From: a virus
Lineage: Duplodnaviria > Caudoviricetes
Length of the DNA stretch: 37,403 bases
Virus record (IMG/VR): IMGVR_UViG_3300025137_000108
Coordinates: 1-37,403 of that record
Strand: one strand, 5' to 3'
Shown here: piece after piece, positions 1,432 to 25,730 of the stretch
How the letters are laid out: every line of letters begins with the position of its first letter
Numbering within the stretch: position 1 is the stretch's first letter
Position numbers and translations under genes: made by a program
Notes under the pieces: generated by a model
What the model saw: the letters and a program-made list of their open reading frames with translations, nothing else
The model's database searches: none
Told to the model about the DNA's origin: nothing

Positions 1432-1827
1432 ATGGCAAGAAATACGAGAAGAAATTATGTGGTGCATGAAGAAGTGTATCATATACTAAAAGAGAAGCCG
1501 GATGGTATGACAGCACAAGAAATAAATGATGTTCTTAACGAAAGGCCAAAGAACCAAGATGAACCATCTACTTATAGGAGATACAGGGGTCTAGCAAAGG
1601 GTAACTCGACTATACAGTTATCATCAATTTTGAGAGGTGGAATCTTGTTTGATTCTTATGATTCAGAAATGAAAAGAGATTCTCTAGGTAGACTAACACC
1701 AATGAAGGTGTATGTAACAAGGACATTAGAAGAAGCATACCAAAAAATGCTAGAGACAAATAAACCTATCAGTAAGTTTCCTAAAGTATTACAGAATTAC
1801 GCTAAAAGTAAGGAGATGACACAATGA
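1432..1827 (+). CDS. Winged-helix DNA-binding protein
   Basis: VHEEVYHILKEKPDGMTAQEINDVLNE ... STIQLSSIL pattern typical of wHTH. Confidence 0.6.
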   Translation: MARNTRRNYVVHEEVYHILKEKPDGMTAQEINDVLNERPKNQDEPSTYRRYRGLAKGNSTIQLSSILRGGILFDSYDSEMKRDSLGRLTPMKVYVTRTLEEAYQKMLETNKPISKFPKVLQNYAKSKEMTQ

Positions 1828-2699
1828 AGGCCAACATAATAGAAACTTATGGAGATACAGATATTGTATGGAATAAGATTTATGGTGAACATACATCGAA
1901 AACACCTACGACTCTTATAGTCTTTAATCAAAATGAGAAGGGATATGCTAGTTTTATTACAGGCATGGGTTTGATAGGTGATGAGAAACCTGTCGCTAGA
2001 ATCTTTAGTAGATTGCATCAAGTAGAGCCTTTCAATAATTACCCCGAACCTGTATTTCCTGAATGGAGATTGTTTGAAAAGAAAAATATGGACGGTGATA
2101 GATTCTTTATTCTTAGAATTACACATACATTCCCTGTGCATAGTGATGATGAATCTTCTATATCGTGGTTATACACATATCCAATTATTAGAGATATAGT
2201 TTTAGCACTAAATAATAAGGGTGTTCATTCTCTATGTTATCTTACGGTAAATCTAATGCAAGAGTTTTCTACTACTACTCACGGCATGATACATGAGAAT
2301 CAAATAGGAATCTTTGACTACATGAACCACGAAGAAGATATTCAGTTAATTCAGCGTAGGCATGAAGATTCAATTAGGTTACAACATCTTAAACCACTAA
2401 AAGAAGATATAGTAATGCCGTTGCCTGTTTGGACTTTTGGTTCGGTGTTCAAAAACTTCTGCACTAATACTATTAAGGAAAATATAACTGTAATAGGTGG
2501 TAGGGATAGAAACACGTTTGTGAATACTGAAACACAAGAAACACTATCATGGTTTGTTCAAGATAAATATAAATTGACCGTAGACCATGAGAAGGAAAAG
2601 TATTTAACCGTTCTATTGTCTGACTTAGAACACCTTACCAAGCCGCTAAGTATTGATAGGGCTATGGTAGAGTTTGGGGGAAATGAGTATGGAGAGTAA
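1824..2699 (+). CDS. PAC2-family (proteasome assembly chaperone, PbaA/PbaB-like) fold protein
   Basis: By-eye match to the PAC2 pattern: PTTLIVF..GYASFI..LI..PVARIFS; WRLFE..DGDRFFIL..FP; YPIIRDIV....KGVHSLCYL; C-terminal FVN.ET.ETL...YKLTVD helix; ends ..EYGE. Confidence 0.55.
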   Translation: MKANIIETYGDTDIVWNKIYGEHTSKTPTTLIVFNQNEKGYASFITGMGLIGDEKPVARIFSRLHQVEPFNNYPEPVFPEWRLFEKKNMDGDRFFILRITHTFPVHSDDESSISWLYTYPIIRDIVLALNNKGVHSLCYLTVNLMQEFSTTTHGMIHENQIGIFDYMNHEEDIQLIQRRHEDSIRLQHLKPLKEDIVMPLPVWTFGSVFKNFCTNTIKENITVIGGRDRNTFVNTETQETLSWFVQDKYKLTVDHEKEKYLTVLLSDLEHLTKPLSIDRAMVEFGGNEYGE

Positions 2700-4023
2700 T
2701 TTTAACGTATTTGAAAAGACGCAAGAGTTTGCTACAAGAAACTTCTTCATAGATGTAGAAGATAAGATACCTATATTTCTATGTAGTATTGGTGGGCATT
2801 TATTTAACACATTGAATAAATGTAGCCGATGCGACTTCGACCCTGATAGCCCATTATATGCTACCGGAGATTTCGTTATAGAGCATTGTCCTTTACGGCA
2901 TAACAATATCCCTTTCTATACACCCATGTCGCAATTACCCGATACAAGGATTCACCTAATGCTTAGAGGTGCTAAAGGTTCGGGTAAAAGTATTATGATT
3001 CTTATGTTCTTAGCAGAAGGCACAGGACTTATCCATAGCAACAATGCAGATATGGGTCAAGGATATAATACGATGATGGGTGCGAACTCGGTTACAGAAG
3101 CAGGTATGTTTGGTTCGGTAGACGAGGACGGCAACATAGCAGGACGACCAATCGCTAGAGAGTTATGTGGTGGATTCTTAGGCTTTGAAGAGTTTAGTAG
3201 TATGTCCGATGCGTCTAAAAAAGACCACAGCCTAGATATGAAAAATCAATTACTTACATCCCTAGATAATGGTAGAGTGAATAAGGCCATGAGAAACGGA
3301 TGGGTTAATTATACTACAAGATATACAGTTTGGGCGGGAACACAACCGGCAAGATTTGAGTTAGAATCAGGTCTTGATAGAAGATTCTTTATCATTGATA
3401 TTGAAATGTCTCCTGAAAAGGAACAGGCTTACAAGAGAGCCCAACACGCACAGGCAAATATGCAAGTTCCCGAAAGAGTAGAATTGGCTAATCTCAATAT
3501 TGAGATTAAGGATTGGATTAGGGCTAGACAACAATACGCTACACGTAATCCACCGACAGGTGTTTTGTTTGATGATGAAGTAGCAGAATGGATTAACAGA
3601 CCGGATGTCCGTTCTTTTGAGGCAGATTTATTCCGTAGATTATGTATAGGTTATCATATGATGCAACCTAATTATGTTGGTGGGCAAGCACTAATTATTA
3701 CCCTTGATGATACTCTTAGGGGAATACTAAATCAATCACTAGAGATGAGAAGAAGAGTGATGGATGCAGACCTTGAGTTAATCAAGACTACGTTTTGGAT
3801 GAAGGATATATCGAAATCTGTATTGCTGAAAGAAGTCTCCAAGATGGTTACGTCGGGTGATTATCAATCAGCAAAGAGATGGGTTACTGAAAACTTAGAA
3901 GGTCAATCATGGTATGGAGAATACGCACCAAACGTCAAGAGGCGTGGTAGGAAAGGTGTTACTTGTCGTATCGGCACACAACGTCTTGAGACTGATGAAG
4001 AAGAACAAAAGTGGGGTATATAG
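2689..4023 (+). CDS. mcm: MCM-like AAA+ ATPase/helicase lacking the MCM N-terminal domain
   Basis: Walker A GAKGSGKS; MCM-like SVTEAGMFGSV; Walker B GGFLGFEEF; Arg-finger LDRRF; lid helices and probable C-terminal WH. CSRC..C..H insert before Walker A. Start 2683 or 2689. Confidence 0.7.
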   Translation: MESNFNVFEKTQEFATRNFFIDVEDKIPIFLCSIGGHLFNTLNKCSRCDFDPDSPLYATGDFVIEHCPLRHNNIPFYTPMSQLPDTRIHLMLRGAKGSGKSIMILMFLAEGTGLIHSNNADMGQGYNTMMGANSVTEAGMFGSVDEDGNIAGRPIARELCGGFLGFEEFSSMSDASKKDHSLDMKNQLLTSLDNGRVNKAMRNGWVNYTTRYTVWAGTQPARFELESGLDRRFFIIDIEMSPEKEQAYKRAQHAQANMQVPERVELANLNIEIKDWIRARQQYATRNPPTGVLFDDEVAEWINRPDVRSFEADLFRRLCIGYHMMQPNYVGGQALIITLDDTLRGILNQSLEMRRRVMDADLELIKTTFWMKDISKSVLLKEVSKMVTSGDYQSAKRWVTENLEGQSWYGEYAPNVKRRGRKGVTCRIGTQRLETDEEEQKWGI

Positions 4024-4632
4024 ATGAGGACAGCAAGAGAAATACAACAAAGACTGCAAGGAGAAAATGATGCTTTTGCCATCGAGGTTCTTAGGTGGGT
4101 TTTAGATGGTGGCTGTCCTATGTGCGACCATAAATCCAAGAAGGATTATGAATTAGGTATAATGAATGAAGAGTTTAGTGCTACGTTCTTAGAAGTAAGA
4201 CACAATTGGAATGAAGGTGTAGTTATGAATCACATAGATAACCATATAGAGTTTGATGCTTTAGAAGCAAGAAACATGGAAAATGATAGACAACAAACTA
4301 TCTCTACTTTAGATGCGGCAGAAGATATTGTTATTAGGATTCAGAATTACCTAAACGAATTAGAAGTGCAGAAAGAAGCGGCAGGTGGAATATCTTCTGA
4401 GTTTGTTACAGATGCGGCAAAACTAATTGGACAGGCTAACTCTTCTTTGAAATTGGTAGGCCAATTGAAAAAGGAAATAGGTGTAGATTCGCAATTAATG
4501 TTGGCTCAAGCACAGGTCAATGATATGTCAAGAATACTAATAGATGTATTAGGTTCTCACCCACAGTTACTAGACCAAGTAGAATTGAAAATGGCTCTAC
4601 TAAAAGAACCTTCGGTGATTATTAATGACTAA
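4024..4632 (+). CDS. Zn-finger/HTH + coiled-coil protein (terminase small subunit-like)
   Basis: CPMCDH...NHIDNH metal-binding HTH pattern followed by long amphipathic helices (LKLVGQLKKEIG). Confidence 0.4.
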   Translation: MRTAREIQQRLQGENDAFAIEVLRWVLDGGCPMCDHKSKKDYELGIMNEEFSATFLEVRHNWNEGVVMNHIDNHIEFDALEARNMENDRQQTISTLDAAEDIVIRIQNYLNELEVQKEAAGGISSEFVTDAAKLIGQANSSLKLVGQLKKEIGVDSQLMLAQAQVNDMSRILIDVLGSHPQLLDQVELKMALLKEPSVIIND

Positions 4633-4873
4633 GAAATGGCGGTCTGATTCTATCAAGACTCTTATAAATAGAGCAATCTATGAAAAGGATTTACCTAATT
4701 TGGTTGAAGCCATGAAAGAAGATAATCTTACGGCAAATATAACTCACAACGGAATAGAATGGTATCACGCAGATTATAGAGTAACTAAGACTTCTATAAT
4801 GGATGTTTGGGGTCTAACCGCAGGGCAAATGGAACGTGTTCAGACTTACGTCTATGGGCATGACCCATTCTAA
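4625..4873 (+). CDS. Hypothetical protein (82 aa)
   Basis: GGTGA SD at ~4614, overlaps upstream stop. Confidence 0.7.
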   Translation: MTKKWRSDSIKTLINRAIYEKDLPNLVEAMKEDNLTANITHNGIEWYHADYRVTKTSIMDVWGLTAGQMERVQTYVYGHDPF

Positions 4874-4926
4874 CTTTATATAGTTCAGTTTCAAAAAAAT
4901 ATGTGGAAAAAAATTGTGGTGGGCGT

Positions 4927-5592
4927 ATGGGTATAGTGATATTTACAGATGACGATAGTAAGTTTATGGAATCTAAATACATTATGATGATAGGAGAAAT
5001 TGATACACCACCTACTGATAAAGACACTACTTACATTCTCCGTAGTAATAAGTTTAAGGAAAAGGATGTATTGGAATGGTTGCCTATGATAGCAAACCGA
5101 CTTGTGGTTTGTTGTGATAAGCCACCAAAAATTACTACTAAGAGTGAGGATTATGTAATCATATCTGACTCTCTTAAGATTAAGGGTAAAACTAACCACT
5201 ACTCACCTATCAATGCTTTATTGTCATGGAAAGATAGAAGAAGAGTCAATGCAGTATTTAGTAAAACACCTTTACCTTTGGCTAAAGCATTCTTGAAAGA
5301 AAATGACGTAGACATAACAATATGGCGTAAATTAGCCAAAACTGCTATGTTTTTACCGGAAAAGTATGTTAGAGCCATAATGGTTTATGGTATAGAACCT
5401 GCTCATAAGAAAACTAAGTTCCCTAAAAAAAAGAAGCAAGAATATACACATGAACATTGTCGTTCAAGTGATAAGCATATAGAGGTCATAGTAAAAAACT
5501 CTATAACCGTAAGTAATCGTATTAAGGAACAAGGCGGAAGCGTACCTAAAGGTATGAAGAAGTCTAAGGGTTTGGTTAGTGAGTGGTTATGA
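4927..5592 (+). CDS. Degenerate clamp-loader large subunit (RFC-L-like, no Walker A)
   Basis: Collar-like SPINALL...TPLPLAKAFLKEN resembles archaeal RFC-L P..L..WI.EN; basic tail; C-terminal PIP-like GLVSEWL. ATG 4927 follows GTGGTGGG. Confidence 0.5.
   Translation: MGIVIFTDDDSKFMESKYIMMIGEIDTPPTDKDTTYILRSNKFKEKDVLEWLPMIANRLVVCCDKPPKITTKSEDYVIISDSLKIKGKTNHYSPINALLSWKDRRRVNAVFSKTPLPLAKAFLKENDVDITIWRKLAKTAMFLPEKYVRAIMVYGIEPAHKKTKFPKKKKQEYTHEHCRSSDKHIEVIVKNSITVSNRIKEQGGSVPKGMKKSKGLVSEWL
5500..5517 (+). promoter_or_regulatory. Possible intragenic copy of the viral promoter motif (TCTATAACCGTAAGTAAT)
   Basis: Matches AAAC-TATA-ACCGTAAG consensus; inside a CDS, ~90 nt before ATG 5589. Confidence 0.45.
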
Positions 5593-5792
5593 GTTTAATT
5601 TTATTGGGAATGATGGCAGAAGTGATAGGTAAAGCATTAACAGAACCTTACGTTAAACTTAGTATAGAGACTAGGTTAAGTGGAATAAAAGAAAAAGAAG
5701 TAGATTTAGTGGCTAATGATTGTGAGGGAATATCACACGGAGATTCATACATGATGGCCGCTATGTTTCAAAGCATGGGGAATGATTTATAA
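5589..5792 (+). CDS. Small hypothetical protein with hydrophobic N-terminus
   Basis: ATGA overlap with upstream stop; 67 aa. Confidence 0.6.
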   Translation: MSLILLGMMAEVIGKALTEPYVKLSIETRLSGIKEKEVDLVANDCEGISHGDSYMMAAMFQSMGNDL

Positions 5793-5816
5793 GCACTATG
5801 AGGCTTACATTTATAC

Positions 5817-6218
5817 ATGAGTGCTAATAACAAAAGAGTTAGGCGTATTATCGTGGACATTTTGTGGGAATATGGCTCTATGACTAAAGAGGGGATGGCC
5901 GCTATGTTAAGTAAAACGAAAAACATTAGGACAGTACCTTCTCCACACAGTCTTTCGGCTTTATTGAGTAAGAATCCACAGATTGTACAGGTAGGTTCTA
6001 CTAAAGTAGAAAATGCAATAGGTACATCAGCAAATCATTTAGTATATGACATTAATAGAAAGGTCATTAAATCAAAGGAAGATATTATGCTTACTAGAAG
6101 TCCGACTGTTATGACACCGGCTCAAATGCAAGAGGCACAACAATGTTCTTGTGGGAAGATAAGAATATTTCCGGTAAATGAAACTAGATGTCTACACTGT
6201 ATAAGAAAAGAACAATAA
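5817..6218 (+). CDS. Winged-helix + C-terminal Zn-ribbon protein, putative transcription regulator
   Basis: RRIIVDILWEYGSMTKEGM...SPHSLSALLSKN wHTH; CSC...CLHC; TTTATA 31 nt upstream. Confidence 0.6.
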   Translation: MSANNKRVRRIIVDILWEYGSMTKEGMAAMLSKTKNIRTVPSPHSLSALLSKNPQIVQVGSTKVENAIGTSANHLVYDINRKVIKSKEDIMLTRSPTVMTPAQMQEAQQCSCGKIRIFPVNETRCLHCIRKEQ

Positions 6219-6237
6219 AGCACTAAGGGGTAGGATT

Positions 6238-6606
6238 ATGCAGGGAATAGAAATGGATGACTTATCCACTATAATAGCAAGTGTATTTAATGCAGAAAAA
6301 CCAATAGATTTGGGACAAATATTAACTGCACAGAATATGTCCGAGGCCCAATACATGAGATTTGTACTTTGTCTCGCTACTGATGTAGATTACGAATTAG
6401 GGGATGACGAAGTAATAGATGATATGATTACTACTCTTCCCGAAAAAGTAAGTACAGAATATCTAAAGGGTATAATGGTAGGATTACTTTTATCCCTAGA
6501 AGCAGAAGCGAGAACAGGCGGCCAATTAGGTTTCAGACCTGCACACGCAGAAATTATGAGTTTATTCCAATCAGCAGAAGCATTGATTTACGAGAGACAG
6601 GTGTAA
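6238..6606 (+). CDS. Hypothetical acidic helical protein
   Basis: 122-aa ORF with GGGGTAGG SD. Confidence 0.75.
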   Translation: MQGIEMDDLSTIIASVFNAEKPIDLGQILTAQNMSEAQYMRFVLCLATDVDYELGDDEVIDDMITTLPEKVSTEYLKGIMVGLLLSLEAEARTGGQLGFRPAHAEIMSLFQSAEALIYERQV

Positions 6607-6635
6607 ATATGACGCTTAAGACACAGAACATAAAG

Positions 6636-6653
6636 TATATAACCGTAGAAAAA
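6636..6653 (+). promoter_or_regulatory. Conserved viral promoter copy (TATATAACCGTAGAAAAA)
   Basis: TATA starts 30 nt before ATG 6666. Confidence 0.75.
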
Positions 6654-6665
6654 TAAGGTATTAAT

Positions 6666-6815
6666 ATGGGAGAAACAGACTGCGACCCTAACCACCATGA
6701 GTTTGACTTTGTTAGACTTAAAGGTAGTATGAGGGGAGAAAGAATGTTAGTATATTGTACTTGTAGAATATGTGGAATGCAAACAGCATTAAACGGAACT
6801 ATGGGTCTTTATTAA
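6666..6815 (+). CDS. Small Zn-binding protein (49 aa; not in ORF track)
   Basis: Hand translation MGETDCDPNHHEFDFVRLKGSMRGERMLVYCTCRICGMQTALNGTMGLY*; follows the promoter motif at the conserved spacing. Confidence 0.7.
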   Translation: MGETDCDPNHHEFDFVRLKGSMRGERMLVYCTCRICGMQTALNGTMGLY

Positions 6816-6945
6816 ATCTCAAGTTGGCGAGGCTACCTAAACAGGTGGTAGCCCAAAACCGTAACCGATATGCACAGATAGAGTGAGGCTCACTTAAGTG
6901 AGATTTCTGATAATAAATAGAGCATTAACAAGTCGGATAAGCCAA
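6814..6945 (+). ncRNA. Candidate structured RNA / cis-regulatory leader upstream of rfcS
   Basis: Nested complementary segments TTGGC/GCCAA, GGCTACC/GGTAGCC, CCGAT/GTCGG, ATGC/GCAT, CAGA/TCTG, plus 14-bp palindrome CTCACTTAAGTGAG, in a ~150-nt gap. Confidence 0.35.
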
Positions 6946-6968
6946 TAAAAAATTAAGGAGAAAGTAAT

Positions 6969-7859
6969 ATGACAATATGGGCTACTAAATATAGACCTGC
7001 TCTCGGTGAGATAGTCGGTCAGAATGAAGTTATTAATGAGGTAACTTCTTTACAGCACTTTATCTTTTACAGTCCTCAAGCGGGAACGGGTAAAACAAGT
7101 CTTGCTTTGGCTATGGCTAAAGAATTAGAGTGGCCTATCCATGTGTTCAATGCTAGTAGCAAAAAGACTAGGGGTATTGACTTCGTAGAAGAAGAGTTAC
7201 TACCTATGTCTAGGACAGGCAACCCAAATCAATTCTTTTTACTCGATGAGGCAGACCAATTAACACCTGCCGCACAATCAGCATTAAAAGGTGTTATAGA
7301 AAACTCACAAGGTTACTTTATCCTTACTTGTAATGATTTAAGTAAAGTTAGTAAGTGGTTACAATCTAGGTGTAGGGTTTTGAAGTTTAATCCTATCTCT
7401 AAGGATGATATAGTAAAGAGACTATCTATGATAGCAGGTAAAACAGGGACTATTGTTACAGAAGGGCAATTAAATCTGATTGCTGATGCACACGAAGGAG
7501 ACTTAAGGAATAGTATCAATGCTTTACAGGCATTTTCTGTTCACCCCGAACCGGAAGGGTTCATCAACGGCCTTGTTTCACAGGGTCTTGACGCTAAACA
7601 CTTTCTCACGTTATGTTTCCGTGAGAATGATTATAATTTAGCCTTAAAAGAAACATACGGAATACCACCTAGAGAAGTGGTAAAAACAGTATTCGACTAT
7701 GCTATTACATCTACCGCAAAAGTAGATAGTATAATGCGTATCGTAGATGCCGCATCAATAACCGAAAGGGATTTGATACACGGTGTCGAGGAAAATATAG
7801 CCATAGCAAACTTTGTCCGTTTGTGTATGGAAGGATATACAAAAACTTTATATCCGTAA
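6969..7859 (+). CDS. rfcS: Replication factor C small subunit (clamp loader)
   Basis: WATKYRP, IVGQ, Walker A AGTGKTS, FNAS...RGID, LLDEAD, AQSALK, LQSRC, GDLRNSINALQ. Confidence 0.95.
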   Translation: MTIWATKYRPALGEIVGQNEVINEVTSLQHFIFYSPQAGTGKTSLALAMAKELEWPIHVFNASSKKTRGIDFVEEELLPMSRTGNPNQFFLLDEADQLTPAAQSALKGVIENSQGYFILTCNDLSKVSKWLQSRCRVLKFNPISKDDIVKRLSMIAGKTGTIVTEGQLNLIADAHEGDLRNSINALQAFSVHPEPEGFINGLVSQGLDAKHFLTLCFRENDYNLALKETYGIPPREVVKTVFDYAITSTAKVDSIMRIVDAASITERDLIHGVEENIAIANFVRLCMEGYTKTLYP

Positions 7860-7864
7860 GAAAA
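7847..7864 (+). promoter_or_regulatory. Conserved viral promoter copy (TTTATATCCGTAAGAAAA)
   Basis: Overlaps rfcS 3' end; 50 nt before ATG 7897, which has its own GAGG SD. Confidence 0.7.
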
Positions 7865-7896
7865 CCGGACTAGAATTACAACAAGAGGAAGCCAAT

Positions 7897-9081
7897 ATGG
7901 ATGAAACGATGATAAATAATGTAGCAAAAACAGTGAATGTGGCCGCAGATACCCTGCGTAGTAAGGCTCAATCAGTCTTACTAGAACAGGGTGCGGCTTG
8001 GAAAAACGCAGGTAAGTCTGACGACGACTGCGGTATTCTTGCGTTAAGAGTAGCGGCAAGAATGATTAGCACAGATAATGCGAGACTATCTCGTTCCGGT
8101 GCAACAAAGTATGAAGGTATGTTTATTGCCGTTCCACGTCCTAAAGAATGGGGTAAAATACTATACAATAAAATGTCCGGCCAATTAAAAACTGCGACAG
8201 AAGATGTGCGAAACGTATTGGTTGAATCCGGTGCGGTTGTTCTCTTTGAAAATAACCACGATGGGACTTATACAAGACACGCTAGAGAAGATTTCTACGG
8301 TGTAGAATCTGCTGATGTTACAGAATTACCTAAGCATACTCAGAAGTTAGATGAGAATACACACTTCTTCGTAGTATGGGATAAGAATAACAAGACTTTC
8401 CCATCCGGTGATGCTAACTTTAAGTATGGCCGACCTAGACCTCAAGATGAGAGGGAAAGAACATCTATGTTCTTAGGCCGTGTTCATGGAAGTAATGATG
8501 AGGTAAAAGTAATCAACATCAAAGCAACACAAAAGGGTGCAGATGTTCAGTACCCTACCTTTACAACAGGGACTATTGCGGCTAGACCTGCGGCTAACGG
8601 GACTACAGCATACGCTAAAGATGGTGTATCAATCTTTGAAGCAGACCCTTCATTAGCAAGTATATTTTCAGCAGACCCATTGACACTTGTCCCACAGATT
8701 ATCGGACAAGAGAATATGATTTCGGGCTTAGATAAACTAGGTCAATACTATGACACCCATAACGGAAATGCAGGTTGGTGGGATAGAACCCTCGCTACTG
8801 TAGCAGAAGTTATACACATAGACCCTAGAGATAATGGCGGATATGTTTTAGTATGTGCTGATTTAGACATTTCTTCTACGGCCGCAACCGTAGATGTTTA
8901 TATTCCAAGTGAACAAGATTCACTTGTGGACTTCGCAGTCGGTACTAAAGTGCTACTTCACGGACAGGCATGGCGAACAAAAGAAGGAGAGGACAGAATG
9001 TCTATCTCCGGTTGGTATGCCTTTGACAGAATAGCAGTCATGGATGAAGTAGTTTCTACCGACGACGGGTGGGATGAGTGA
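7897..9081 (+). CDS. OB-fold single-stranded DNA-binding protein (RPA/SSB-like)
   Basis: C-terminal OB-like strands (FAVGTKVLLHGQAW...RMSISGWY), acidic tail DDGWDE, replication-module context; start reassigned to MDETMINN. Confidence 0.55.
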   Translation: MDETMINNVAKTVNVAADTLRSKAQSVLLEQGAAWKNAGKSDDDCGILALRVAARMISTDNARLSRSGATKYEGMFIAVPRPKEWGKILYNKMSGQLKTATEDVRNVLVESGAVVLFENNHDGTYTRHAREDFYGVESADVTELPKHTQKLDENTHFFVVWDKNNKTFPSGDANFKYGRPRPQDERERTSMFLGRVHGSNDEVKVINIKATQKGADVQYPTFTTGTIAARPAANGTTAYAKDGVSIFEADPSLASIFSADPLTLVPQIIGQENMISGLDKLGQYYDTHNGNAGWWDRTLATVAEVIHIDPRDNGGYVLVCADLDISSTAATVDVYIPSEQDSLVDFAVGTKVLLHGQAWRTKEGEDRMSISGWYAFDRIAVMDEVVSTDDGWDE

Positions 9082-9296
9082 AGGCTTTAGGTCATTACGT
9101 CTTTCTCCATAACACCATACAGGAAACTGTCGGTGGACTCATTCTTGAAGGCCATCTACAAGTCCTATCCGTAGGCGGTTTAGTCCCTCTTGAAATAGAA
9201 GAGGGCTATTCCGTCTTGGTGGATGAAGCAAAGATTATTCCCTTCGATAACGAAGTTAGTGCTATACATTGGGAACATATACTAGGATATTATTGA
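9078..9296 (+). CDS. groES: Co-chaperonin GroES-like, shortened
   Basis: MKALGHYVFL, mobile loop ETVGGLIL, VLSVG, EEGYSVL, EHILG; directly upstream of groEL. Confidence 0.8.
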   Translation: MKALGHYVFLHNTIQETVGGLILEGHLQVLSVGGLVPLEIEEGYSVLVDEAKIIPFDNEVSAIHWEHILGYY

Positions 9297-9305
9297 GGTA
9301 TAAAT

Positions 9306-10820
9306 ATGGAAAATATATTACATGGAGAAGAAGCAAGAGACAAATTACTCTTAGGGGTAAACAAAGTCGCTGATGCAATCAAAGGCACACTAGGTGCGAA
9401 TGCGGGAACTGTAATAATACAGAACCCTGCGGGACTACCTTTAATTCTTAATGATGGTGTATCTATTACTAAGTCTATTACCGACCCCGACCCTTACGTG
9501 CAAATGGGAATCAATCTAATGCAAGAGGTGGCTCACGAAGCACAAAGTAAATCGGGCGACGGCACTACTACTGCTACTATCTTAGCACAGGCATTATGTA
9601 ATACAATGGCTGATGATGATACAGATAATATTAAGATAAAAGAAAGTCTTAGTAATATGTGTAAGTTTATAGTAGATAAATTAAAAGACATGGCTACTGA
9701 TGTTAATGACGATGACTTACTAGATGTATGTATTGTAGCGGCTAATAATGATTTAGAGTTAGGTAGTTTGATACACGAAGCACTTTTGGCTGTAGGCCAA
9801 GAGGGTAATGTGATAATAGAAAGCAATTCCGATAACACTACTACATGGTCTTTGACCGAAGGACTTGTTATGGATAGTGGGTATGTAAACAAACTAATGG
9901 CTAATGCAGATAGAGAAAAGTGTATTTACGATAATGCCTCTATACTTTTAACGCAAGAGAAAATAGATACCTTTAACCATATAGTCCCTGCACTAGAATT
10001 ATCTATGAAAGCAGGTAAGCCTTTAGTGATAGTTTGTCATGATTACAACCCAAGCATACTACCTAACTTACTCGTTAATATTATGCAAGGTAAATTAAAT
10101 GTCTGTATAATTAAGACGGCAGGTTTTGGTGATACTCAAGACCATTGGCTTCAAGATATAGAAGCAAAATGTGGTGGTAAAGTATTCAATTCATTTGACA
10201 GTATTATTACCGTAAAAGAACATGAGTTAGGTATGTGTGATAAAGTAGAGATAACTTCTACTGCATCTACATTCATTAAGGATGGGGTAGACGAGGATTA
10301 CATAGGTAATCTTACCTCAATACTAACTCAAGTAGAAACAGATTTTGAGCGAGAGATAGTAGAGAATAGGATTGCTAGACTTACTTCGGGTATCGCATCT
10401 ATTAAGGTAGGTGGAATTACTGATATAGAACAAAGGGAACGTAGAGAACGTGTAGACGATGCTGTCAATGCCGCTACTCTTGCTAGAAAGCAAGGGATAG
10501 TAAGTGGTGGTGGTGTAGCACTTAAGGATATTTGGTGGAAACATCAGACTGTTGATGAGTTAGATGGCGTAAAGTATTTTGATGCAATCCTAGCACCTAT
10601 CAAACAGATTTTATCTAATAGTGGTAAGCCTACTTCAAATCTTGCTTACGCTCAATCAAAAGATGTAGGTTGGAACGCAGTTTCAAGAAAATATGAAAAC
10701 TTAAGATTCAATGGTATTATTGACCCTGTTGGTGTAACTATTAACGCTGTCGAATCCGCTTTCTCTATCGCTATACTACTACTTACTACTGATTGTGCTA
10801 TAATAGCACCACAAGAGTAA
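9306..10820 (+). CDS. groEL: Group I chaperonin GroEL
   Basis: NDGVSI, SGDGTTTATILAQ, AGFGD, RIARLTSGIASIKVGG, RVDDAVNA, GIVSGGG, GIIDP; no GGM tail. Confidence 0.95.
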   Translation: MENILHGEEARDKLLLGVNKVADAIKGTLGANAGTVIIQNPAGLPLILNDGVSITKSITDPDPYVQMGINLMQEVAHEAQSKSGDGTTTATILAQALCNTMADDDTDNIKIKESLSNMCKFIVDKLKDMATDVNDDDLLDVCIVAANNDLELGSLIHEALLAVGQEGNVIIESNSDNTTTWSLTEGLVMDSGYVNKLMANADREKCIYDNASILLTQEKIDTFNHIVPALELSMKAGKPLVIVCHDYNPSILPNLLVNIMQGKLNVCIIKTAGFGDTQDHWLQDIEAKCGGKVFNSFDSIITVKEHELGMCDKVEITSTASTFIKDGVDEDYIGNLTSILTQVETDFEREIVENRIARLTSGIASIKVGGITDIEQRERRERVDDAVNAATLARKQGIVSGGGVALKDIWWKHQTVDELDGVKYFDAILAPIKQILSNSGKPTSNLAYAQSKDVGWNAVSRKYENLRFNGIIDPVGVTINAVESAFSIAILLLTTDCAIIAPQE

Positions 10821-17916: not shown

Positions 17917-18621
17917 GTGCTTCTGATAGACGATAGAGAAAACCCCAAAGTAGTTAATAAATTGTTAATGAGATTGGGTGAAGAAAATGCCCAAGTTTTA
18001 AGGATGACTTCTTCTGATTATAGAATAGGTTCTTGGGGAATTGAGGCAAAAGAAATAAATGATTTATACAGAAGTATTCTAGGTCTAGGGAGAAATGGTA
18101 GAACAATAGTACATCAGTTAAGAGAATTACAAGAAGATTTTGATAACCCTATGTTAGTAGTTTATGGAACTAAACTAAAGCCATACATTCATGGTGGTAG
18201 ACCGTCAGCAAAACAGATAGCAATAGAAATGTCTAGGATGAAAAAAGTAAATCAGCAATTTAAAATGACATTTTATCAAAGATTTCCTAAAATTAAATAC
18301 ATGGAATTGACTACTATGGATGATTTTGTAGAATGGTTGGTCATAAACCACACACAAACACAAGTAAAAGAGGCTACCGGACTTAATGTTATGGAAAAAC
18401 AAACTAAAAGCGCAGTAGAAATGAGCAATTTAGACCCTAGAGTCGCTGTTTTATGTTCCCTTAAAGGTATTTCAGTACAAAATGCAGAAGATTTACTAAA
18501 AGAGTTTGGTAGTTTACCTAAATTACTTATGAATAAAAACACCCAAAAATCTTTGATGGATGTTAAAGGTATAAGTAGATACAAAGCACAAAATATACTA
18601 AGTCTTAGAGATAATTACTGA
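17917..18621 (+). CDS. ERCC4/XPF-family structure-specific nuclease with HhH tail
   Basis: IDDRE, SDY, IEAKEINDL, C-terminal LKGIS...VKGIS HhH pair; GTG start 30 nt after CTTAAATA. Confidence 0.85.
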   Translation: MLLIDDRENPKVVNKLLMRLGEENAQVLRMTSSDYRIGSWGIEAKEINDLYRSILGLGRNGRTIVHQLRELQEDFDNPMLVVYGTKLKPYIHGGRPSAKQIAIEMSRMKKVNQQFKMTFYQRFPKIKYMELTTMDDFVEWLVINHTQTQVKEATGLNVMEKQTKSAVEMSNLDPRVAVLCSLKGISVQNAEDLLKEFGSLPKLLMNKNTQKSLMDVKGISRYKAQNILSLRDNY

Positions 18622-21600
18622 ATCTCAAACTTATTAGATGTACCACTAACAGGTGCAGATGCTCTATTTAGTTTTACCTTAATACTTTTTAGTAAAACAC
18701 TATTTCTATCTGAATTATCATCACCTGTTGCCGCTTTTCTAGTAAGTTTAACGGTTATTTTATTACCTGCTTTTACACCATCTAAAGCATTAAGTGGTAT
18801 TAACTCTACTATTTTTTCTTTTGAGTTAGTTTGTACACGAATAGTATTAGATATTGTCTCTCCTGTTTCTTCAATAATTGCGGTTGTATAAAGAATAGCA
18901 GTTTTAGTCGTAGATGCACCTATACCATGACTTAGTTTTGCCGTAATTAAAATATTATTATTTACTACATCATCGGGAATTATAAACTCGGTCTGCAAAG
19001 TAGATTCAAAAGTAGTAGTAGTAGGACTTTCATTTAATAAATCTACCCTACCTTTACCTGCTAGTATATATCCATCAGATGTTACAGATGCGTTACCGCT
19101 TGCAGTTTGTATATCTACATCCATACCTTCTATTCCCTTAAACAACGTAGGTACTTTAGGTGGTTTCTGTTGGCCTAAGATACTAAACTTAGAATTATGA
19201 CTTAGATTATCATTCATCAAAGACATCCTACCGTTTAATTTACCGTAAGCACCTTTACTAAGTTTTCCTATCCCTACCGCCCCTGTTGAAGTAGTAATCG
19301 TATCTCCTTTTGAGTCGTCTGATTGTGTAAAACCATTCGCTGATGTACTTTGTCCATCCGTCTGTACTTGTTCGCTAGAAGTACTACCTTGGGGTATTCT
19401 ATTTGTCTTAAAAACAGTAATAGGTTCAGTATCTTTTCCTGTTATACTACTACTAACTTGTCTTGTCTTTCCTTGATTTGGGAATAAGAATCCTAAAATA
19501 CCACCACTAGATAAAGACTCATCTCTTTCTAATTCAAGTTGTATATCTTCTTTAGAACCCGATACTACATTCCAATTGATACTTTTTATAGTTAATGTTT
19601 CTGCGGTAGATAAACCTATACCTGCATCTGTAAAACTTAAATATGTAGCAGGGATATAGGATAAATCATTAGTAATATGTATTCTAGGTGCGTACCATTC
19701 ATTTCTAGCAGTAGTAAACCCACCATACATTTCTGAATATTTTCTGCCACCTAGAGGGAAAATACTGTTTGTATTTCCTGTTTTCATAAAGCCCGTACTT
19801 ATACCTTCTACTGCATTTGCATTTTTAAGTACTACTAATTGTCCTGCTGTTGCCCCACTACCAACTTCGGTAGGGTTTCCACACCTATGACGTAGCAAAG
19901 CACGACAATATTCTGCGTTAAAACTAACTACTATTTTTGCATTTGTTACTGCGCCATAAGTACTAGGTATATCTATTTCATAAAAACCACTATGTTTTAC
20001 ATTTTTAAATGTGGTGGATTTTAAAGTAGGGGTTCTATTTACGCCATCAAAACTATAATCACAAAGATGTATTCTAAACTCGCAATCGTCTATTGTTGAA
20101 GATACAGATGTGTCAGTTAATGCTACAAATACTCTTAATGACTCTCCGCTAGTGTTACTTGCTTTTGGGGTAAAATTAGGTACATGAACTATCTGCATAG
20201 CATAACTTATAGACCTAGAACCATACCAATAATAATTATCAGCCCAAGCCACGTCATCAGCAGTATGTGTAAAGGCTGATTTACCGTATCGGTGGTACAA
20301 ATCAGTAGAAGTTTTCATATTCCCATCTAACCCGTTAGTCATACCTGAAAAGGGTACGCCACCTGTACCTAAAATAGTCCAAGAATTACCTTTATTTATA
20401 TTTCCGGTGTTATAATCATTTCCTTGTAAGGCTAGTTGCGGGTCGGCTATATAACCGTATCTACCGCTTTCTATCATCTTATTATTATGGTTATTTTCTA
20501 AAATAGGTTTTACCGTAACTGATAACCTAGAGTTTTTAACTTGATTATATTTTTGTTTTGCTACTTGTCGTGCTTCTAAACTACTAATTATTTTTGGGTA
20601 TTCTAATACTGTCCATCTAGTAGTATCTGTTAAAGATGTGTTGGGGTAATCTACAAAAGAATATCCTTTGTTATAATACACTCTAACATTTGTTATTTGA
20701 CCTGCTACATCAGTACTTAAATCAGATATAGTTACGTTTTCTCTTGTTAAAATTAAACCGCTATTATACTTAGGTCTATATTCAAATCTATTGTCTCTAC
20801 CTATCAAGTAAGAGAAGGTTGTTTTAAGCCCGTTTTCTACGCCGAAGCCACTCTTACCCCTTGCATCCTCTACCGTGCTTAGAATCGTCTTAGTACGGCT
20901 ATCTACGATACTTCCGTAGCCATCATTACTAGAGATACTATTATAGGTAGTCATAAGAGATGTGATAGGCACATTATTTATATCAAACATAGTACCCAAT
21001 CTTGTTTTAGGTGTCCACGATTTCATAATTGCCGCATTCCACAACAACCTAAACTTATCGCTGTCGTAAAAACTACCACTATTTTTACTTTGTACATCTC
21101 CTTCAACGTGCATTAATAACCTAAGCATAAATTGACTGCTTACTGTGTTGTGTACAACAACCAAATCAGCCTGTGGGTTATCCCCTGCTATTCTTTGGCT
21201 GACATTTACACCTATACCTTCCATATTACCTTTTAGTAGTGGTGTGTATAAAGCCCATATTTCATTTTCTACGCCTGTTGAAGAAGTTTCTATTGAAGAA
21301 GTAATATGGTCGGCAGTTGTTAAAAACGCATTAGCCAATTGTACAGGCAAAGTATAATCATCAGTATCGCTTTGAGTAGCAGACCATGTACCGGAAACTA
21401 CTATTTGAGTTTCACTTAAAACTGCTAATACATTATGCCTAGTTTCTTTTGTCGTATTTTTAATAACCATACCAATTTTAACACCTTTTGTTTGAAAGGT
21501 TTCTCCTATTTTTGTTATTACTGTGTTAGTAGGATTTGTGGTAGTAATGTTTTGCGTTCTATTGTAAGATGTTATTGTTATACCTGTACCTACTACTGCT

Positions 21601-24600
21601 GTATCTAATTTATATTTCCAAGCAAAATAATATTCTACTGTATCATCACTATCGGCAATATCTACTACTATAAGACCTGCGCCTGTATAATTAAAATTAG
21701 CCGTAGATTCAACAGGTATTCCTCTATCCCCCATTATCAAACCTTCGTCTGCTGTTGTCAAATCCGATATTAACCTTTGGTTATTAGGATGTGGAGAAAT
21801 AGGTGCGGCTGTATTTTTATATGAAGATATTGCTTCCGCATAATAATTATCTATTAGTGCAGGGAATCCCTCAACCGTTGCTACATAATCCCCTAAATCA
21901 GTATTTTTTCCTGTTACTTGGTCTGATGCACCTTTGTTTGCTAGGGTGTTTAGATTGAAAAACCTAGCCGAATCTATAACTATAAATGCACCCGCTTTAT
22001 TTTCCCAATCTTGATAAATACTTAAATCTGTTTCCGAGGCTTCTGCCGGTGCAACCATTACATTACCTACTACTGCATTAGTATTTGTACCTGCGGTAAC
22101 ACCTTTTAAGACAATAGCACTTGTACCAGTAATAGATGCTATTTCATAAGTACCATCATAGTGTAGGCTATTATATACAGTAGCATAAGAACCTACTGTA
22201 TAATTTGTAGTTGTTGGCCCAAAAGTTAGAGTGATAGGGTTGTTAGAAGCAGTAGCAACCACACTTAATTCAAAAGTAGTAGAGTTATTTATACTAGATA
22301 CTGTCGCACCACTAGGAATACCTGTACCGGAAACAGACATACCTACAACAATAGAAGCGGTACTACCCATCGTAATAGTAGCATCTCCATTAGTAGTATT
22401 ACAAGTATTATTTACTAAACCACTAATTAATAATTGGTTAGAGGCGTATGTAATATTTACCGGATTGCCTAAAGAATAATCGGGTGTCTTAGAAAACGCC
22501 GCACCGCTAACAGGTTCGGTTGTAGCATCTACATTCCATATATCTATATCTTCCCCTATTTTTAAGTTAGCAAACTTATCTATATTTCCATCTGTATCTG
22601 TTTGGTCTACATAATAGAGAGAGACTTCATAATTATCTGTTGTTGGGTACTGCAAACCAAAATCTTTTTTTCTTGTAGAGCCGTCTGCATCTGCTCTACC
22701 GTTATTTCTCATATCAGACCAAAGAAGCCAAAGATGTTTATAATCATTAGAAACATTTAAAATTGATACTTTGCCAGTAGAAGTATAATAAGTTTTTGTA
22801 ATATATTTACATCCTATAAGATAATATTTATTACCACTACTAATAAGACCTGTGTACACAAATATAGTAGTATTATCAATACTACTTAATTGTGCTACAC
22901 CACTTTTATGATTAGTAGTTAAATTATTATATAGGGCCTGTGGTATTTCTACTTTATTGTCTCCGGCATTTACTTTTGTGGAAATACTATCTCTAAACAA
23001 AGCAGTACGGTTTATTTTACCAAAGTGATATTGAAACCAAAGACTCTTAGGTAAATCTCGCATCCATCTAGCGTGTATTGGTTTGGTTTTTACTTTATCA
23101 AAATTACCTGCTGTGCTTGCTATAGTACATGAATCTAGGGAAATACTTTTTCTATCATTAGTATCTCTTAATCCATCTTTATCGGTATAAGCCTTACCTG
23201 ATGCTACAAACTCAATACCGTTGTAATCTGTTGATGTAGTAACAACCCACAAAAAAGGATTAATTATTGAGCCTGTATCATAGTAATTCATAATTTTTTT
23301 AACGCCTGTTACTGTGTGTTTACCATCATAACTAGCATTAGAAGAAAGTCCTATTGTAACATCACTTACACAAAACTCATCGTTTATAAGCAAAACAGGG
23401 TCAGCATCAAAGAAAAATGTAACATATTCTGATGTAGCCTCGTCTGAACTAGAATTGGGTAATGCGTTATATCCATTTTCAGCCCTACGCCATGATATAT
23501 AATGACTATAAAAAGCACTTGTGCCGGGTTGTACTATTCTAAGTATAATAGAAGATGCGTTTGTTTCCCCTAGATATTTACCTGCATATACTATTTTAGC
23601 AGTAGGTGTAACATAAGGTACATCACTTGCACTAAAAGTAGCAGAAAGACTTGTTACAGAATCTACGGTATAAGACCCATTAGTAGCCGCATTATTAGAG
23701 CCCCTAATAACAGCAGTAGAACCTTGAGTAACACCATGACCTACTAATAAGTTTATAACTGTTTTACCGTTAGTATCTTGACTGAATCCTTGAGAAAATA
23801 AACCTTCGTATTGTGCTTCTAAATCGTTAGGGCCGAAAACTGTATCTTCGTTATTGTACATTTGTATAGGATGGCCCGAACCTAATTGTGTTCTTTGGTT
23901 GTTTACTTCTAAATAAGAATCATCTACATCAAACCCGACTTTATTACTAAGTGTTTTTAAGGGTAAAGTACCTAGATTCATAATTTGTTTATATCCTTGT
24001 GCATCATATAACCAATAATGAGGTGTTTCTGTATTATTACTAAGGCTTTTTTGCCCTACTTCCCATAGTGGTATTTGTCTATCTAATAAATTAAGATTAT
24101 CATTAGCATTTAATGTTATTGTTCTACCATCATCGTTTCTTTGTTTTATAGACATTTTATCTATTATACCTCTCCATACCGGCCTATCTATTCTTGGTGT
24201 TTGACTAGCAAAAACTAACAAAGACCAATCAACGGGGGTATCACCACTAAATATATTTTTTAGGTTATGTAAATAATCTTGAGAACGCATACCAACATTG
24301 AGATTTGCTGTACCGCCCGATTCTTTTTGGGGGTCATCAGCAATAACAATTTTACAATTAGATACACCGTTTACCGGCATAGAAATATTCATATTTTGTA
24401 TAGGTGCATCATAACTTTTGTAGTTTTTAGCGTCTGTTAAATATCTAACAAGACCCACTCTATCAATCATTAATGTAGTAGTAGTTCCCAACCATGCGGC
24501 TGTTGGGGATGCCTCAATTTCATAACCGTACAAATCTCCCGCATTAGGGCTACCATACATATTTTGGTTAGAAGCAATTATTGTTCCGTTAATATAAACA

Positions 24601-25730
24601 TCAAAAGTACCTGCACCACTATTACCACTATAGTTTAAGACAAAATCTACATCTAACCACATATCATCATTAAATATATTAGATTCTGTAGTGCTTTCAT
24701 ATTGTAGACCTAGTAAATCGTAACTTAAAGAAGAGGCTGACAAATCAATAACATAACTAATTGCGGGCGTACCTGAAAATCCCAAAGATGTAGTTATACC
24801 TTTTTGTGAAGCAGGATAACCTATTTTAAATGTCAAATTAGTAGGTATTTTTCCATTTTCAACAGAACCCGTTCCGCCGGTTGAACCGTTAAATGCCCTT
24901 ACTGCTACTCTTGCGGTAAAAATATCACCATCTAATAGGCTGTTTAAAGGACCATCATAAACTAATTGTGGTTTTCCAATACTATCATTGTATCTATTTC
25001 TCCAAGTTTGTACACACAAAAAAGGCTGTCCCGATGGAGATGAAACAGGCGCAAACAAATTAACAGGGGTTGTGCTTGTAGCATTAAAAGCCAATGTTTC
25101 TCCCATCCAAACACCCGCTAAATGCGCTCTTTGTATAAAATCCCCAACAGCACCTATTTTTCCCGCAATTTTACTAACATAATTAGTATCATGAGGGCCA
25201 CTTCCATTGTAATATGATTTCATACTGCTTCTACCAAAAGTAGCATCGTTATCTCCCGTAGGAATTAAATACCTACCTTCCGTATCGTTGCCGTTTGTAA
25301 TTAATAACCAATCACTAGCGTTACTACCTTCTAATTCTACATTATTAAAAGCATATCTATTAGAAATATGCCCATCGGGATATTGTAGTTGCGCCCTACC
25401 TTCCCATTTTTCTGCATTTTGTCTTATGCTGTCGTAAGATAACCATTCAAACGCACCTTTATTTTTAAGATACTGATTAGTACTATCTACATTATCAACG
25501 TGTGTAGAGCCTATTAAGTTTCTATCAGCAATACTAAATCTATATCTTTGATTTAGAGTAGCCTCTCCATTCATAGGATTTCCAAAATGTGTAAGTGTGC
25601 TTGCGTAAACACCTGTAGAATATGTATTAGTAGGTGTATTAAAATCATCTGAGATAGCCCTAGCACCCATAAAGTCATCATAATATCCGGCAAGCCAAAT
25701 ACTATACATACTCGTAACGTGTCTTACCAT
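18615..25730 (-). CDS. Giant tail tip/hub (Tal-like) protein with multiple inserted beta domains
   Basis: 2371 aa, directly after the tape measure gene; hub-like PVWRGIIDKM...TITLNAND and QITNVRVYY...EARQVAK; Ser/Thr/Gly/Asn-rich; AGGTGA SD. Confidence 0.75.
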   Translation of the reverse strand: MVRHVTSMYSIWLAGYYDDFMGARAISDDFNTPTNTYSTGVYASTLTHFGNPMNGEATLNQRYRFSIADRNLIGSTHVDNVDSTNQYLKNKGAFEWLSYDSIRQNAEKWEGRAQLQYPDGHISNRYAFNNVELEGSNASDWLLITNGNDTEGRYLIPTGDNDATFGRSSMKSYYNGSGPHDTNYVSKIAGKIGAVGDFIQRAHLAGVWMGETLAFNATSTTPVNLFAPVSSPSGQPFLCVQTWRNRYNDSIGKPQLVYDGPLNSLLDGDIFTARVAVRAFNGSTGGTGSVENGKIPTNLTFKIGYPASQKGITTSLGFSGTPAISYVIDLSASSLSYDLLGLQYESTTESNIFNDDMWLDVDFVLNYSGNSGAGTFDVYINGTIIASNQNMYGSPNAGDLYGYEIEASPTAAWLGTTTTLMIDRVGLVRYLTDAKNYKSYDAPIQNMNISMPVNGVSNCKIVIADDPQKESGGTANLNVGMRSQDYLHNLKNIFSGDTPVDWSLLVFASQTPRIDRPVWRGIIDKMSIKQRNDDGRTITLNANDNLNLLDRQIPLWEVGQKSLSNNTETPHYWLYDAQGYKQIMNLGTLPLKTLSNKVGFDVDDSYLEVNNQRTQLGSGHPIQMYNNEDTVFGPNDLEAQYEGLFSQGFSQDTNGKTVINLLVGHGVTQGSTAVIRGSNNAATNGSYTVDSVTSLSATFSASDVPYVTPTAKIVYAGKYLGETNASSIILRIVQPGTSAFYSHYISWRRAENGYNALPNSSSDEATSEYVTFFFDADPVLLINDEFCVSDVTIGLSSNASYDGKHTVTGVKKIMNYYDTGSIINPFLWVVTTSTDYNGIEFVASGKAYTDKDGLRDTNDRKSISLDSCTIASTAGNFDKVKTKPIHARWMRDLPKSLWFQYHFGKINRTALFRDSISTKVNAGDNKVEIPQALYNNLTTNHKSGVAQLSSIDNTTIFVYTGLISSGNKYYLIGCKYITKTYYTSTGKVSILNVSNDYKHLWLLWSDMRNNGRADADGSTRKKDFGLQYPTTDNYEVSLYYVDQTDTDGNIDKFANLKIGEDIDIWNVDATTEPVSGAAFSKTPDYSLGNPVNITYASNQLLISGLVNNTCNTTNGDATITMGSTASIVVGMSVSGTGIPSGATVSSINNSTTFELSVVATASNNPITLTFGPTTTNYTVGSYATVYNSLHYDGTYEIASITGTSAIVLKGVTAGTNTNAVVGNVMVAPAEASETDLSIYQDWENKAGAFIVIDSARFFNLNTLANKGASDQVTGKNTDLGDYVATVEGFPALIDNYYAEAISSYKNTAAPISPHPNNQRLISDLTTADEGLIMGDRGIPVESTANFNYTGAGLIVVDIADSDDTVEYYFAWKYKLDTAVVGTGITITSYNRTQNITTTNPTNTVITKIGETFQTKGVKIGMVIKNTTKETRHNVLAVLSETQIVVSGTWSATQSDTDDYTLPVQLANAFLTTADHITSSIETSSTGVENEIWALYTPLLKGNMEGIGVNVSQRIAGDNPQADLVVVHNTVSSQFMLRLLMHVEGDVQSKNSGSFYDSDKFRLLWNAAIMKSWTPKTRLGTMFDINNVPITSLMTTYNSISSNDGYGSIVDSRTKTILSTVEDARGKSGFGVENGLKTTFSYLIGRDNRFEYRPKYNSGLILTRENVTISDLSTDVAGQITNVRVYYNKGYSFVDYPNTSLTDTTRWTVLEYPKIISSLEARQVAKQKYNQVKNSRLSVTVKPILENNHNNKMIESGRYGYIADPQLALQGNDYNTGNINKGNSWTILGTGGVPFSGMTNGLDGNMKTSTDLYHRYGKSAFTHTADDVAWADNYYWYGSRSISYAMQIVHVPNFTPKASNTSGESLRVFVALTDTSVSSTIDDCEFRIHLCDYSFDGVNRTPTLKSTTFKNVKHSGFYEIDIPSTYGAVTNAKIVVSFNAEYCRALLRHRCGNPTEVGSGATAGQLVVLKNANAVEGISTGFMKTGNTNSIFPLGGRKYSEMYGGFTTARNEWYAPRIHITNDLSYIPATYLSFTDAGIGLSTAETLTIKSINWNVVSGSKEDIQLELERDESLSSGGILGFLFPNQGKTRQVSSSITGKDTEPITVFKTNRIPQGSTSSEQVQTDGQSTSANGFTQSDDSKGDTITTSTGAVGIGKLSKGAYGKLNGRMSLMNDNLSHNSKFSILGQQKPPKVPTLFKGIEGMDVDIQTASGNASVTSDGYILAGKGRVDLLNESPTTTTFESTLQTEFIIPDDVVNNNILITAKLSHGIGASTTKTAILYTTAIIEETGETISNTIRVQTNSKEKIVELIPLNALDGVKAGNKITVKLTRKAATGDDNSDRNSVLLKSIKVKLNRASAPVSGTSNKFEIQ

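Follow-up and report, generated by a model that had tools for sequence, protein, structure and literature searches.

In Pyrococcus furiosus, the PAC2-family protein PbaB forms a tetramer that activates the 20S proteasome about 3-fold without ATP, through a C-terminal HbYX motif (hydrophobic residue, tyrosine, any residue), and acts as a holdase, suppressing aggregation through its C-terminal segments, while its relative PbaA forms a pentamer (PMC3605417). Phenylalanine is accepted in place of the HbYX tyrosine and activates less, and a Phe-to-Tyr exchange makes M. mazei PAN-A a stronger activator (PMC3493965). The pocket lysine of the 20S alpha subunit is K66 (PMC10349882), and HbYX ends occur in viral proteomes in general (ProEnd, PMC11475706). 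Here, a 37,403-nucleotide virus record of the Caudoviricetes (IMG/VR record IMGVR_UViG_3300025137_000108, positions 1 to 37,403; called the window below) is analyzed around one gene, PAC, encoding a 291-residue protein, and around the gene of an MCM-type AAA+ ATPase that overlaps its end. With moderate confidence, PAC is read as a captured PbaB-type, ATP-independent chaperone or 20S cap that would be made together with the replisome, would more likely compete with host activators than boost host degradation, and would dock less well in the window lineage.

No archaeal virus protein acting on the host proteasome was found in the literature searched on magroviruses, archaeal viruses and PAC2 proteins, where subscription papers may hold prior annotation. 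Neither PAC2 nor the proteasome is mentioned in the accessible portions of PMC11706807, PMC5434244, PMC8651126 and bioRxiv 2025.05.14.653371, or in those of the supplements of PMC11706807 (8,917 characters), PMC10160649 and PMC5434244. The PAC family is a concrete candidate for a virus-encoded agent on the host proteasome; its gene belongs to the core replication operon of marine viruses that are widespread, and the window copy is one of its weaker members for such a claim.

Fold, homology and selection of PAC

In the AlphaFold2 (AF2) monomer model of PAC, made from a 21-row alignment (predicted local distance difference test, pLDDT, 80; predicted template modeling score, pTM, 0.82), a three-layer alpha/beta/alpha core is followed by a long C-terminal helix (residues 255-272) and a flexible acidic tail. 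By this model, Foldseek and VIA, the PAC2 three-layer fold spans the whole chain. The first nine Foldseek matches are Rv2714, PbaB, SCO1997 and related chains (E 5e-7 to 5e-5), led by Rv2714 (E 5e-7), with PbaB (3vr0) at E 7e-6. In the VIA comparison (48,161 chains), PbaB comes first (Z 16.9, root-mean-square deviation, rmsd, 4.6, 227 aligned residues); nine PAC2-family chains score Z 12.1-16.9, and the next fold, MTAN, 9.1. A 66-row viral PAC profile matched an 18-row Poseidoniales PAC2 alignment in hhalign with a probability (P) of 89% and E 2e-6 over 213 columns, and an 87-row profile matched host PAC2 with P 83% and E 9e-6. Nearest among the host paralogues is the TIGR00162-like one (P 61% vs 2% and 1%, on shallow alignments); we take TIGR00162 to be the PbaB side of the PAC2 family. 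Identity to host paralogues is ~11-13%, and a PbaB chain is the top, sub-threshold PDB sequence match of the 87-row profile (E 0.054).

Searches of Pfam, PHROGs and NCBIfam gave no match for PAC or for 21 and 64 homologues, and PAC does not exceed the curated cut-offs of PF09754, TIGR00161 or TIGR00162. PDB sequence searches returned nothing significant for PAC or the MCM-type ATPase, and tblastn against the INPHARED phage set matched neither. From the predicted structure together with profile homology, PAC is confirmed as a real, diverged viral family of predicted PAC2/PbaB fold, as the preliminary description of this DNA had proposed from the residue pattern. A BFVD search returned two unnamed proteins (E 2e-15 and 4e-11), then a nucleoside phosphorylase (E 1.5e-3). 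ESM Atlas feature matches to DUF7831 and Macro were rejected, all scores being <0.9, and a scan with the A8 subclade gave no viral locus.

Clustered at 50% identity, the family has 83 representatives in a set of 1.84 billion proteins. Its mean column identity is 24%, and its family-specific invariant residues are D13, E38, S62, N71, W115, Y119, R123 and D124. Against four close relatives, the ratio of nonsynonymous to synonymous substitution rates (dN/dS) is 0.07-0.23 for PAC, which indicates purifying selection on the gene, and 0.06-0.08 for the MCM gene. Synonymous divergence in the same genome pairs (window vs loci L011, L013, L014 and L016 of our collection) is 0.21-0.45 in PAC vs 0.65-0.73 in the MCM gene, a gap that hints at recombination between the two genes.

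An enzyme supporting replication, nucleosidase/phosphorylase-like or with a new activity, would be in keeping with the nearness of the PAC2 fold to MTAN and PNP (Z 8-9), with conserved polar residues that host PAC2 proteins do not show and with the place of PAC in the replication module. However, PAC2 chains stand far above the enzymes (Z 12-17 vs <=9), overall conservation is as low as noted above, and docking-type tails are present in the family; this account is highly improbable.

C-terminal tails and the host proteasome

The window PAC ends in NEYGE, which, as the preliminary description had stated, is not a canonical HbYX: the tyrosine stands at position -3 and is co-encoded with the start of the MCM gene. 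The idea that this tyrosine is a selected HbYX remnant was rejected, because its codon overlaps the MCM start and close relatives have phenylalanine in its place. Across the family, a first survey covered 100 PAC clusters at 70% identity: 42 end in Hb-[FW]-X, 4 in HbYX, 8 in Hb-H-X and 20 with another penultimate aromatic residue, while 10, the window among them, carry an aromatic residue at -3 and 16 carry none. Hb-[FYW]-X tails are found in 46/100 PAC clusters vs 2.9% of 696 other open reading frames (ORFs). In a larger set, the pattern [LVIMGAPFYW][FY]x (PMC3493965) closes 35 of 118 clusters, 6 of them with tyrosine, and 22 more have tryptophan. When only translationally coupled genes are compared, Hb-[FYW]-X ends occur in 32/92 PAC genes vs 6/494 others, and [ML][FYW]G ends in 23/92 vs 0/494. 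The residues of M-F-G/Q tails are kept through synonymous codons and different Shine-Dalgarno (SD) layouts, and MYQ occurs too. In 16 of 87 PAC representatives the chain ends directly behind the last helix, with the gene still beside MCM. In a quick unrooted tree (midpoint used for drawing), Hb-aromatic-X is present in 39/41 rows of the half far from the window and in 4 rows of the 41-row group that includes it; an unrooted tree leaves tail ancestry unsettled.

On the side of the likely hosts, Poseidoniales archaea (see below), 20S alpha and beta are present in 5/5 genomes, and the alpha chains carry SIEKM, presumably the site of the pocket lysine. PAC2 genes were found in 61/61 Poseidoniales genomes, with three copies in 58. 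Among the fetched ORFs, host PAC2 tails are [ML][YF]G in 13/13 of one group and FY[VA] in 8/8 of another, and a third group of 27 mostly lacks the motif; viral tails repeat the host Pba tails (MYG/MFG/LYG and FYA/FYV). The third host paralogue (Poseidoniales genomes L359-L408) ends mostly without HbYX, in DPSFG, DPSVG or DPMIG. In 151 Poseidoniales genomes, the viral PAC profile found no true member, with three chance-level matches in unrelated ORFs, and the viral MCM profile found no match. The proteasome link suggested in the preliminary description is plausible for the family, given its HbYX-like and host-like tails and the host 20S, and weak for the window copy, whose tail is eroded and overlaps the MCM start. 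The natural tail variants (MYQ/FYA, MFG, MWG, eroded, deleted) make up a ready series on whether docking activates or blocks the 20S.

With three PAC2 paralogues in these hosts, PAC could also co-assemble with them as a dominant-negative or redirecting subunit, the tail-less forms being natural poisons of an oligomeric activator. Shared interfaces are unlikely at an identity of ~11-13%, and PbaA and PbaB formed no hetero-oligomers with each other (PMC3605417); such co-assembly is considered very unlikely.

The MCM-type motor and its pairing with PAC

Eleven MCM chains lead the VIA comparison of the ATPase, with PfMCM-AAA at Z 14.2 (rmsd 3.7, 252 aligned, model residues 1-361); RavA (10.7), BchI (10.3) and then ComM follow. 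The model is weaker than that of PAC (pLDDT 70, and <50 in the core at residues 131-211), and Foldseek gave weak MCM matches (best E 3e-3). The model begins opposite PfMCM residue 267, to which its residue 1 is aligned, so that the MCM N-terminal domain, with its helical, Zn and OB subdomains, is missing, and the earlier view of this neighbor as a truncated MCM is upheld. Residues 360-432 match winged-helix folds (Z 5-6). Downstream of Walker A lie Walker B FEEF, the pre-sensor-1 hairpin Lys200, the arginine finger DRRF and sensor-2 R309, names that we assign from established knowledge of AAA+ proteins. Across 87 rows there is no variation in any of these five motifs or in an inserted C3H cluster, whose C-x2-C...C-x3-H pattern suggests that it may bind metal. 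The longest frame starts at TTG 2674 and ends at 4023, with in-frame ATGs at 2683 and 2689; ATG 2689 is the probable start because the G-rich SD-like run (Table 1) sits 7 nt upstream.

No family in Pfam, PHROGs or NCBIfam was found for the ATPase, and PF00493 misses it. Pfam detects no other MCM in 4 complete related genomes, and a survey of 67 ORFs of one of them (largest and smallest ORFs excluded) found no further helicase family; this makes the ATPase the probable replicative helicase motor of these viruses, a compact MCM without an N-terminal tier that standard profiles overlook. A scan of GTDB genome contigs for this MCM gave none. An 'MCM helicase' has been listed for magroviruses (PMC5434244, PMC10768690), and it may be the same gene as the window motor. 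A role of the ATPase as a proteasome regulator of the PAN/Cdc48/AMA type was rejected. Its KWGI end is no HbYX, the ends vary among relatives, and a substrate-binding N-domain is missing. The fold search listed no PAN or Cdc48 chain, an absence that excludes nothing.

The overlap of PAC with the AAA+ gene, already noted in the preliminary description, amounts to 11-26 nt, depending on the start, and the PAC tyrosine codon (2688-2690) shares bases with ATG 2689. In loci selected by PAC, MCM is the next gene in 52/52, and in 40/40 of distant clades (one incomplete locus of 41 dropped). In loci selected by MCM, PAC lies upstream in 72/76 (80 of 174 matches kept, 4 incomplete dropped) and, in a second set, in 74/79 (80 of 90 kept, 1 dropped). 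The PAC- and MCM-selected sets overlap and contain near-duplicates. Thus, the pair is conserved, whereas the tail, whose conservation was the other half of the same proposed check, is lost in 16/87 and eroded in the window copy. Six distinct records (L128, L131, L132, L139, L470 and L506) carry MCM with no PAC upstream, and whole-record searches found no PAC in them (39-72% complete; positive control in one search set of two). In four of the six, an unrelated gene occupies the PAC slot; these fillers (L128:3850-4578, L131:3949-4653, L132:1879-2664 and L139:3382-4269) form one unrelated, unannotated family, a candidate PAC replacement, and show no match to the PAC profile (P 0.2%). In L138, a methylase-like gene lies between PAC and MCM. 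PAC also diverges much faster than MCM, with a median identity of 28% vs 70% over 2880 pairs.

This constancy might mean that the PAC2 fold has been put to a new use and now serves the MCM that lacks its N-terminal domain, either as a ring replacing the N-terminal tier or as an assembly chaperone or loader of the hexamer, the tail being vestigial or shaped by the overlap. Translational coupling directly upstream in all the locus counts above, the truncation itself with no second Pfam-detectable MCM in the complete genomes, and the persistence of the PAC gene after tail loss would all agree with it. PAC1 and PAC2 are assembly chaperones of a ring and offer a precedent. Nevertheless, the six PAC-less records, although incomplete, hold a closely similar MCM (~60-63% identical), with the unrelated slot gene in four, the pair is split in L138, PAC oligomers are tetrameric or pentameric and not hexameric, and adjacency would be expected anyway in a replication module that is syntenic as a whole. 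Partnership with MCM is a possible though rather unlikely explanation. As the downstream module is equally syntenic, adjacency alone is no proof of PAC-MCM binding. A complex prediction of MCM (1-432) with PAC, from 87-row alignments of each, scored 0.00 and is not evidence either way. Nine metatranscriptome runs gave small word shares, and one of four examined holds contigs of relatives across both genes; as contigs do not demonstrate transcription, these are not used as evidence.

An adaptor would combine the two connections: the PAC core would sit on MCM or on other proteins of the replisome or the host, its invariant residues perhaps forming a new binding face, and the tail would hold the 20S, so that replication of the virus would be linked to targeted degradation. 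Tight PAC-MCM coupling together with HbYX-like tails speaks for such an arrangement; the tail is, however, absent or eroded in the window lineage, and the MCM, which ends in KWGI, has no HbYX and falls on the DNA-translocase side of AAA+. The adaptor is judged quite unlikely.

The favored reading, its setting and known systems

The reading of PAC as a captured PbaB-type cap builds on the fold, homology and synteny, the tail statistics, the 20S and Pba genes of the hosts and the purifying selection described above. A PAC2/PbaB gene was likely captured from the archaeal host, and its product would oligomerize as PbaB (tetramer) or PbaA (pentamer) does, with projecting C-terminal helices. In relatives ending in M-F/W/Y-G/Q or F-Y-A/V, the tail would insert into the alpha-ring pockets of the host, and the cap would rival the activators of the host and protect freshly synthesized replication proteins of the virus; faster degradation is less likely. 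A competing cap is thought likelier than a booster because phenylalanine, which predominates over tyrosine, opens the gate less well in M. mazei PAN-A. In the window virus, docking is probably weak or lost, since the tail has eroded to NEYGE, and a holdase role of the C-terminal helix may remain. The truncated MCM would be a separate tool of the same operon, and independence of PAC from it is suggested by the six records that keep MCM without PAC and by the far faster divergence of PAC.

Several observations weigh against this favored reading. The window copy has no HbYX, and a strict HbYX with tyrosine is rare in the family (6/118 clusters). Tails overlap the ribosome-binding site or start of MCM, so that W-G-stop and G-V-M double as SD sequences, and the tails EWV, DYI and EYGE are co-encoded with the MCM N-terminus; the tail signal is thus partly explained by the DNA. 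Because kin share tails, the counts overstate independence, and because 16/87 representatives have lost the tail beside MCM, docking is not what retains PAC in every lineage. PbaB lacking its last eight residues (C-delta-8) has weaker chaperone activity, and P. furiosus PbaA carries HbYX yet did not bind mature 20S (PMC3605417). Tail loss may therefore blunt a holdase role too. The argument for independence is weakened by the incompleteness of the six PAC-less records, near-invariant adjacency and overlap are equally compatible with a physical PAC-MCM partnership, and gene content is what points to the Poseidoniales host.

A broader proposal takes PAC as the first virus-encoded archaeal proteasome regulator: a captured PbaB whose host-like tail, a Phe/Trp form of HbYX, would dock on the 20S to block or redirect degradation in infected cells and whose core would also bind the MCM without its N-terminal domain, connecting the replisome of the virus with the host proteasome, the window lineage having dropped the tail and kept the role on the MCM side. 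Taken whole, this proposal is unlikely.

The window carries on its + strand an archaeal-type replication block with RFC, PolB, PD-(D/E)XK nuclease, ERCC4 nuclease and GroEL, and its tail genes are on the - strand; complete records of related viruses measure 69-72 kb. This content fits that of the magroviruses of Poseidoniales (Philosof 2017, PMC5434244) and the Aoguangviridae profile (PMC10768690), and Poseidoniales archaea are the likely hosts. The window has no tRNA, and no spacer or tRNA link to a host was found. Coordinates are collected in Table 1.

Table 1. Features of the PAC-MCM region, in positions of the window
Feature	Position	Strand	Basis or remark
Putative winged-helix gene	1432..1827	+	Weak WH_Rok match (E 0.02); overlaps PAC start; first gene past AT-rich gap
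PAC, predicted PAC2/PbaB-fold protein, 291 aa, ends FGGNEYGE	1824..2699	+	Structure, profile-profile match, dN/dS
PAC-MCM overlap: the last PAC codons hold a G-rich SD-like run (2676-2681) and ATG 2689, the probable MCM start	2676..2699	+	Sequence, junction table
MCM-type AAA+ motor without N-terminal domain, with C-terminal winged helix	2689..4023	+	VIA, weak Foldseek
Putative zinc site C-x2-C...C-x3-H, an insertion upstream of Walker A	2821..2901	+	C46, C49, C68, H72 invariant in 87 rows (numbering from 2686)
Walker A RGAKGSGKS	2965..2991	+	Invariant in 87 rows
Conserved downstream module: genes 4024, 4625, 4903, 5817, 6238, RFC 6969-7859, SSB-like 7813-9081	4024..9081	+	Travels with PAC-MCM pair
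GroES-like 9078-9296 and GroEL 9306-10820	9078..10820	+	GroEL by library match; GroES-like indirect

The SSB-like label of the last gene of the downstream module is suggested by its position and the gene list of Philosof 2017. In the same module, the gene next after MCM in nearly all loci (4024-4632, 202 aa) is highly conserved, has a CPMC motif and is no worse a candidate than PAC for a partner of MCM. The conserved gene 4903-5592 ends in EW[LIV]/KWF in 46/48 clusters of its apparent family, an end that we take to be PIP-box-like, and its product may be what remains of an RFC large subunit, or else some other protein that binds the clamp. The GroES-like gene is diverged: its family profile matches an ORF of genome G002 (E 3e-13) that has a sub-threshold Cpn10 match. 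A joint proteostasis system of PAC with GroEL/ES, as the preliminary description envisaged, is weak, and an obligate one was rejected: GroEL lies 5 kb away and is absent from its place in 9/52 related loci, where the SSB-like gene is directly followed by a RadA-like gene. Before the operon, an AT-rich gap (1199-1431) holds an imperfect direct repeat (1230-1244 / 1344-1358) and inverted arms; it is a possible origin or early promoter, and AT-rich repeats may arise by chance. Farther along, a 2371-aa ORF (18615-25730, - strand) adjoins the tape-measure gene and has no Pfam or PHROG match.

Compared with described systems, the window motor shares Walker A/B, the PS1 hairpin, arginine finger, sensor 2 and winged helix with archaeal and eukaryotic MCM (PfMCM AAA 4R7Z, MCM2-7), but lacks the N-terminal domain, carries the inserted C3H putative Zn site and falls below PF00493 detection. 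PAC resembles most closely PbaB of P. furiosus (3VR0), its best structural match: both have a long C-terminal helix and a flexible tail, and helix 255-272 of the PAC monomer model would correspond to the projecting helix alpha-6 of the PbaB-type activator. PAC differs in its 10-12% identity to PbaB, below all library thresholds, in being virus-encoded within a replication operon, and in lacking HbYX in the window copy; the HbYX-like ends of many viral relatives have mostly Phe/Trp, not Tyr. PbaA (3WZ2), Ta1441 (3GAA), Rv2714, Rv2125, SCO1997, PAC1/PAC2 and Pba1/Pba2 share the fold at Z 12-15, below PbaB, and PbaA illustrates that a PAC2 fold, even with an HbYX tail, is no guarantee of binding to mature 20S. 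The Poseidoniales PAC2 paralogues (TIGR00161-/TIGR00162-like) are related to viral PAC by profile homology, and the same tail words recur in its viral members.

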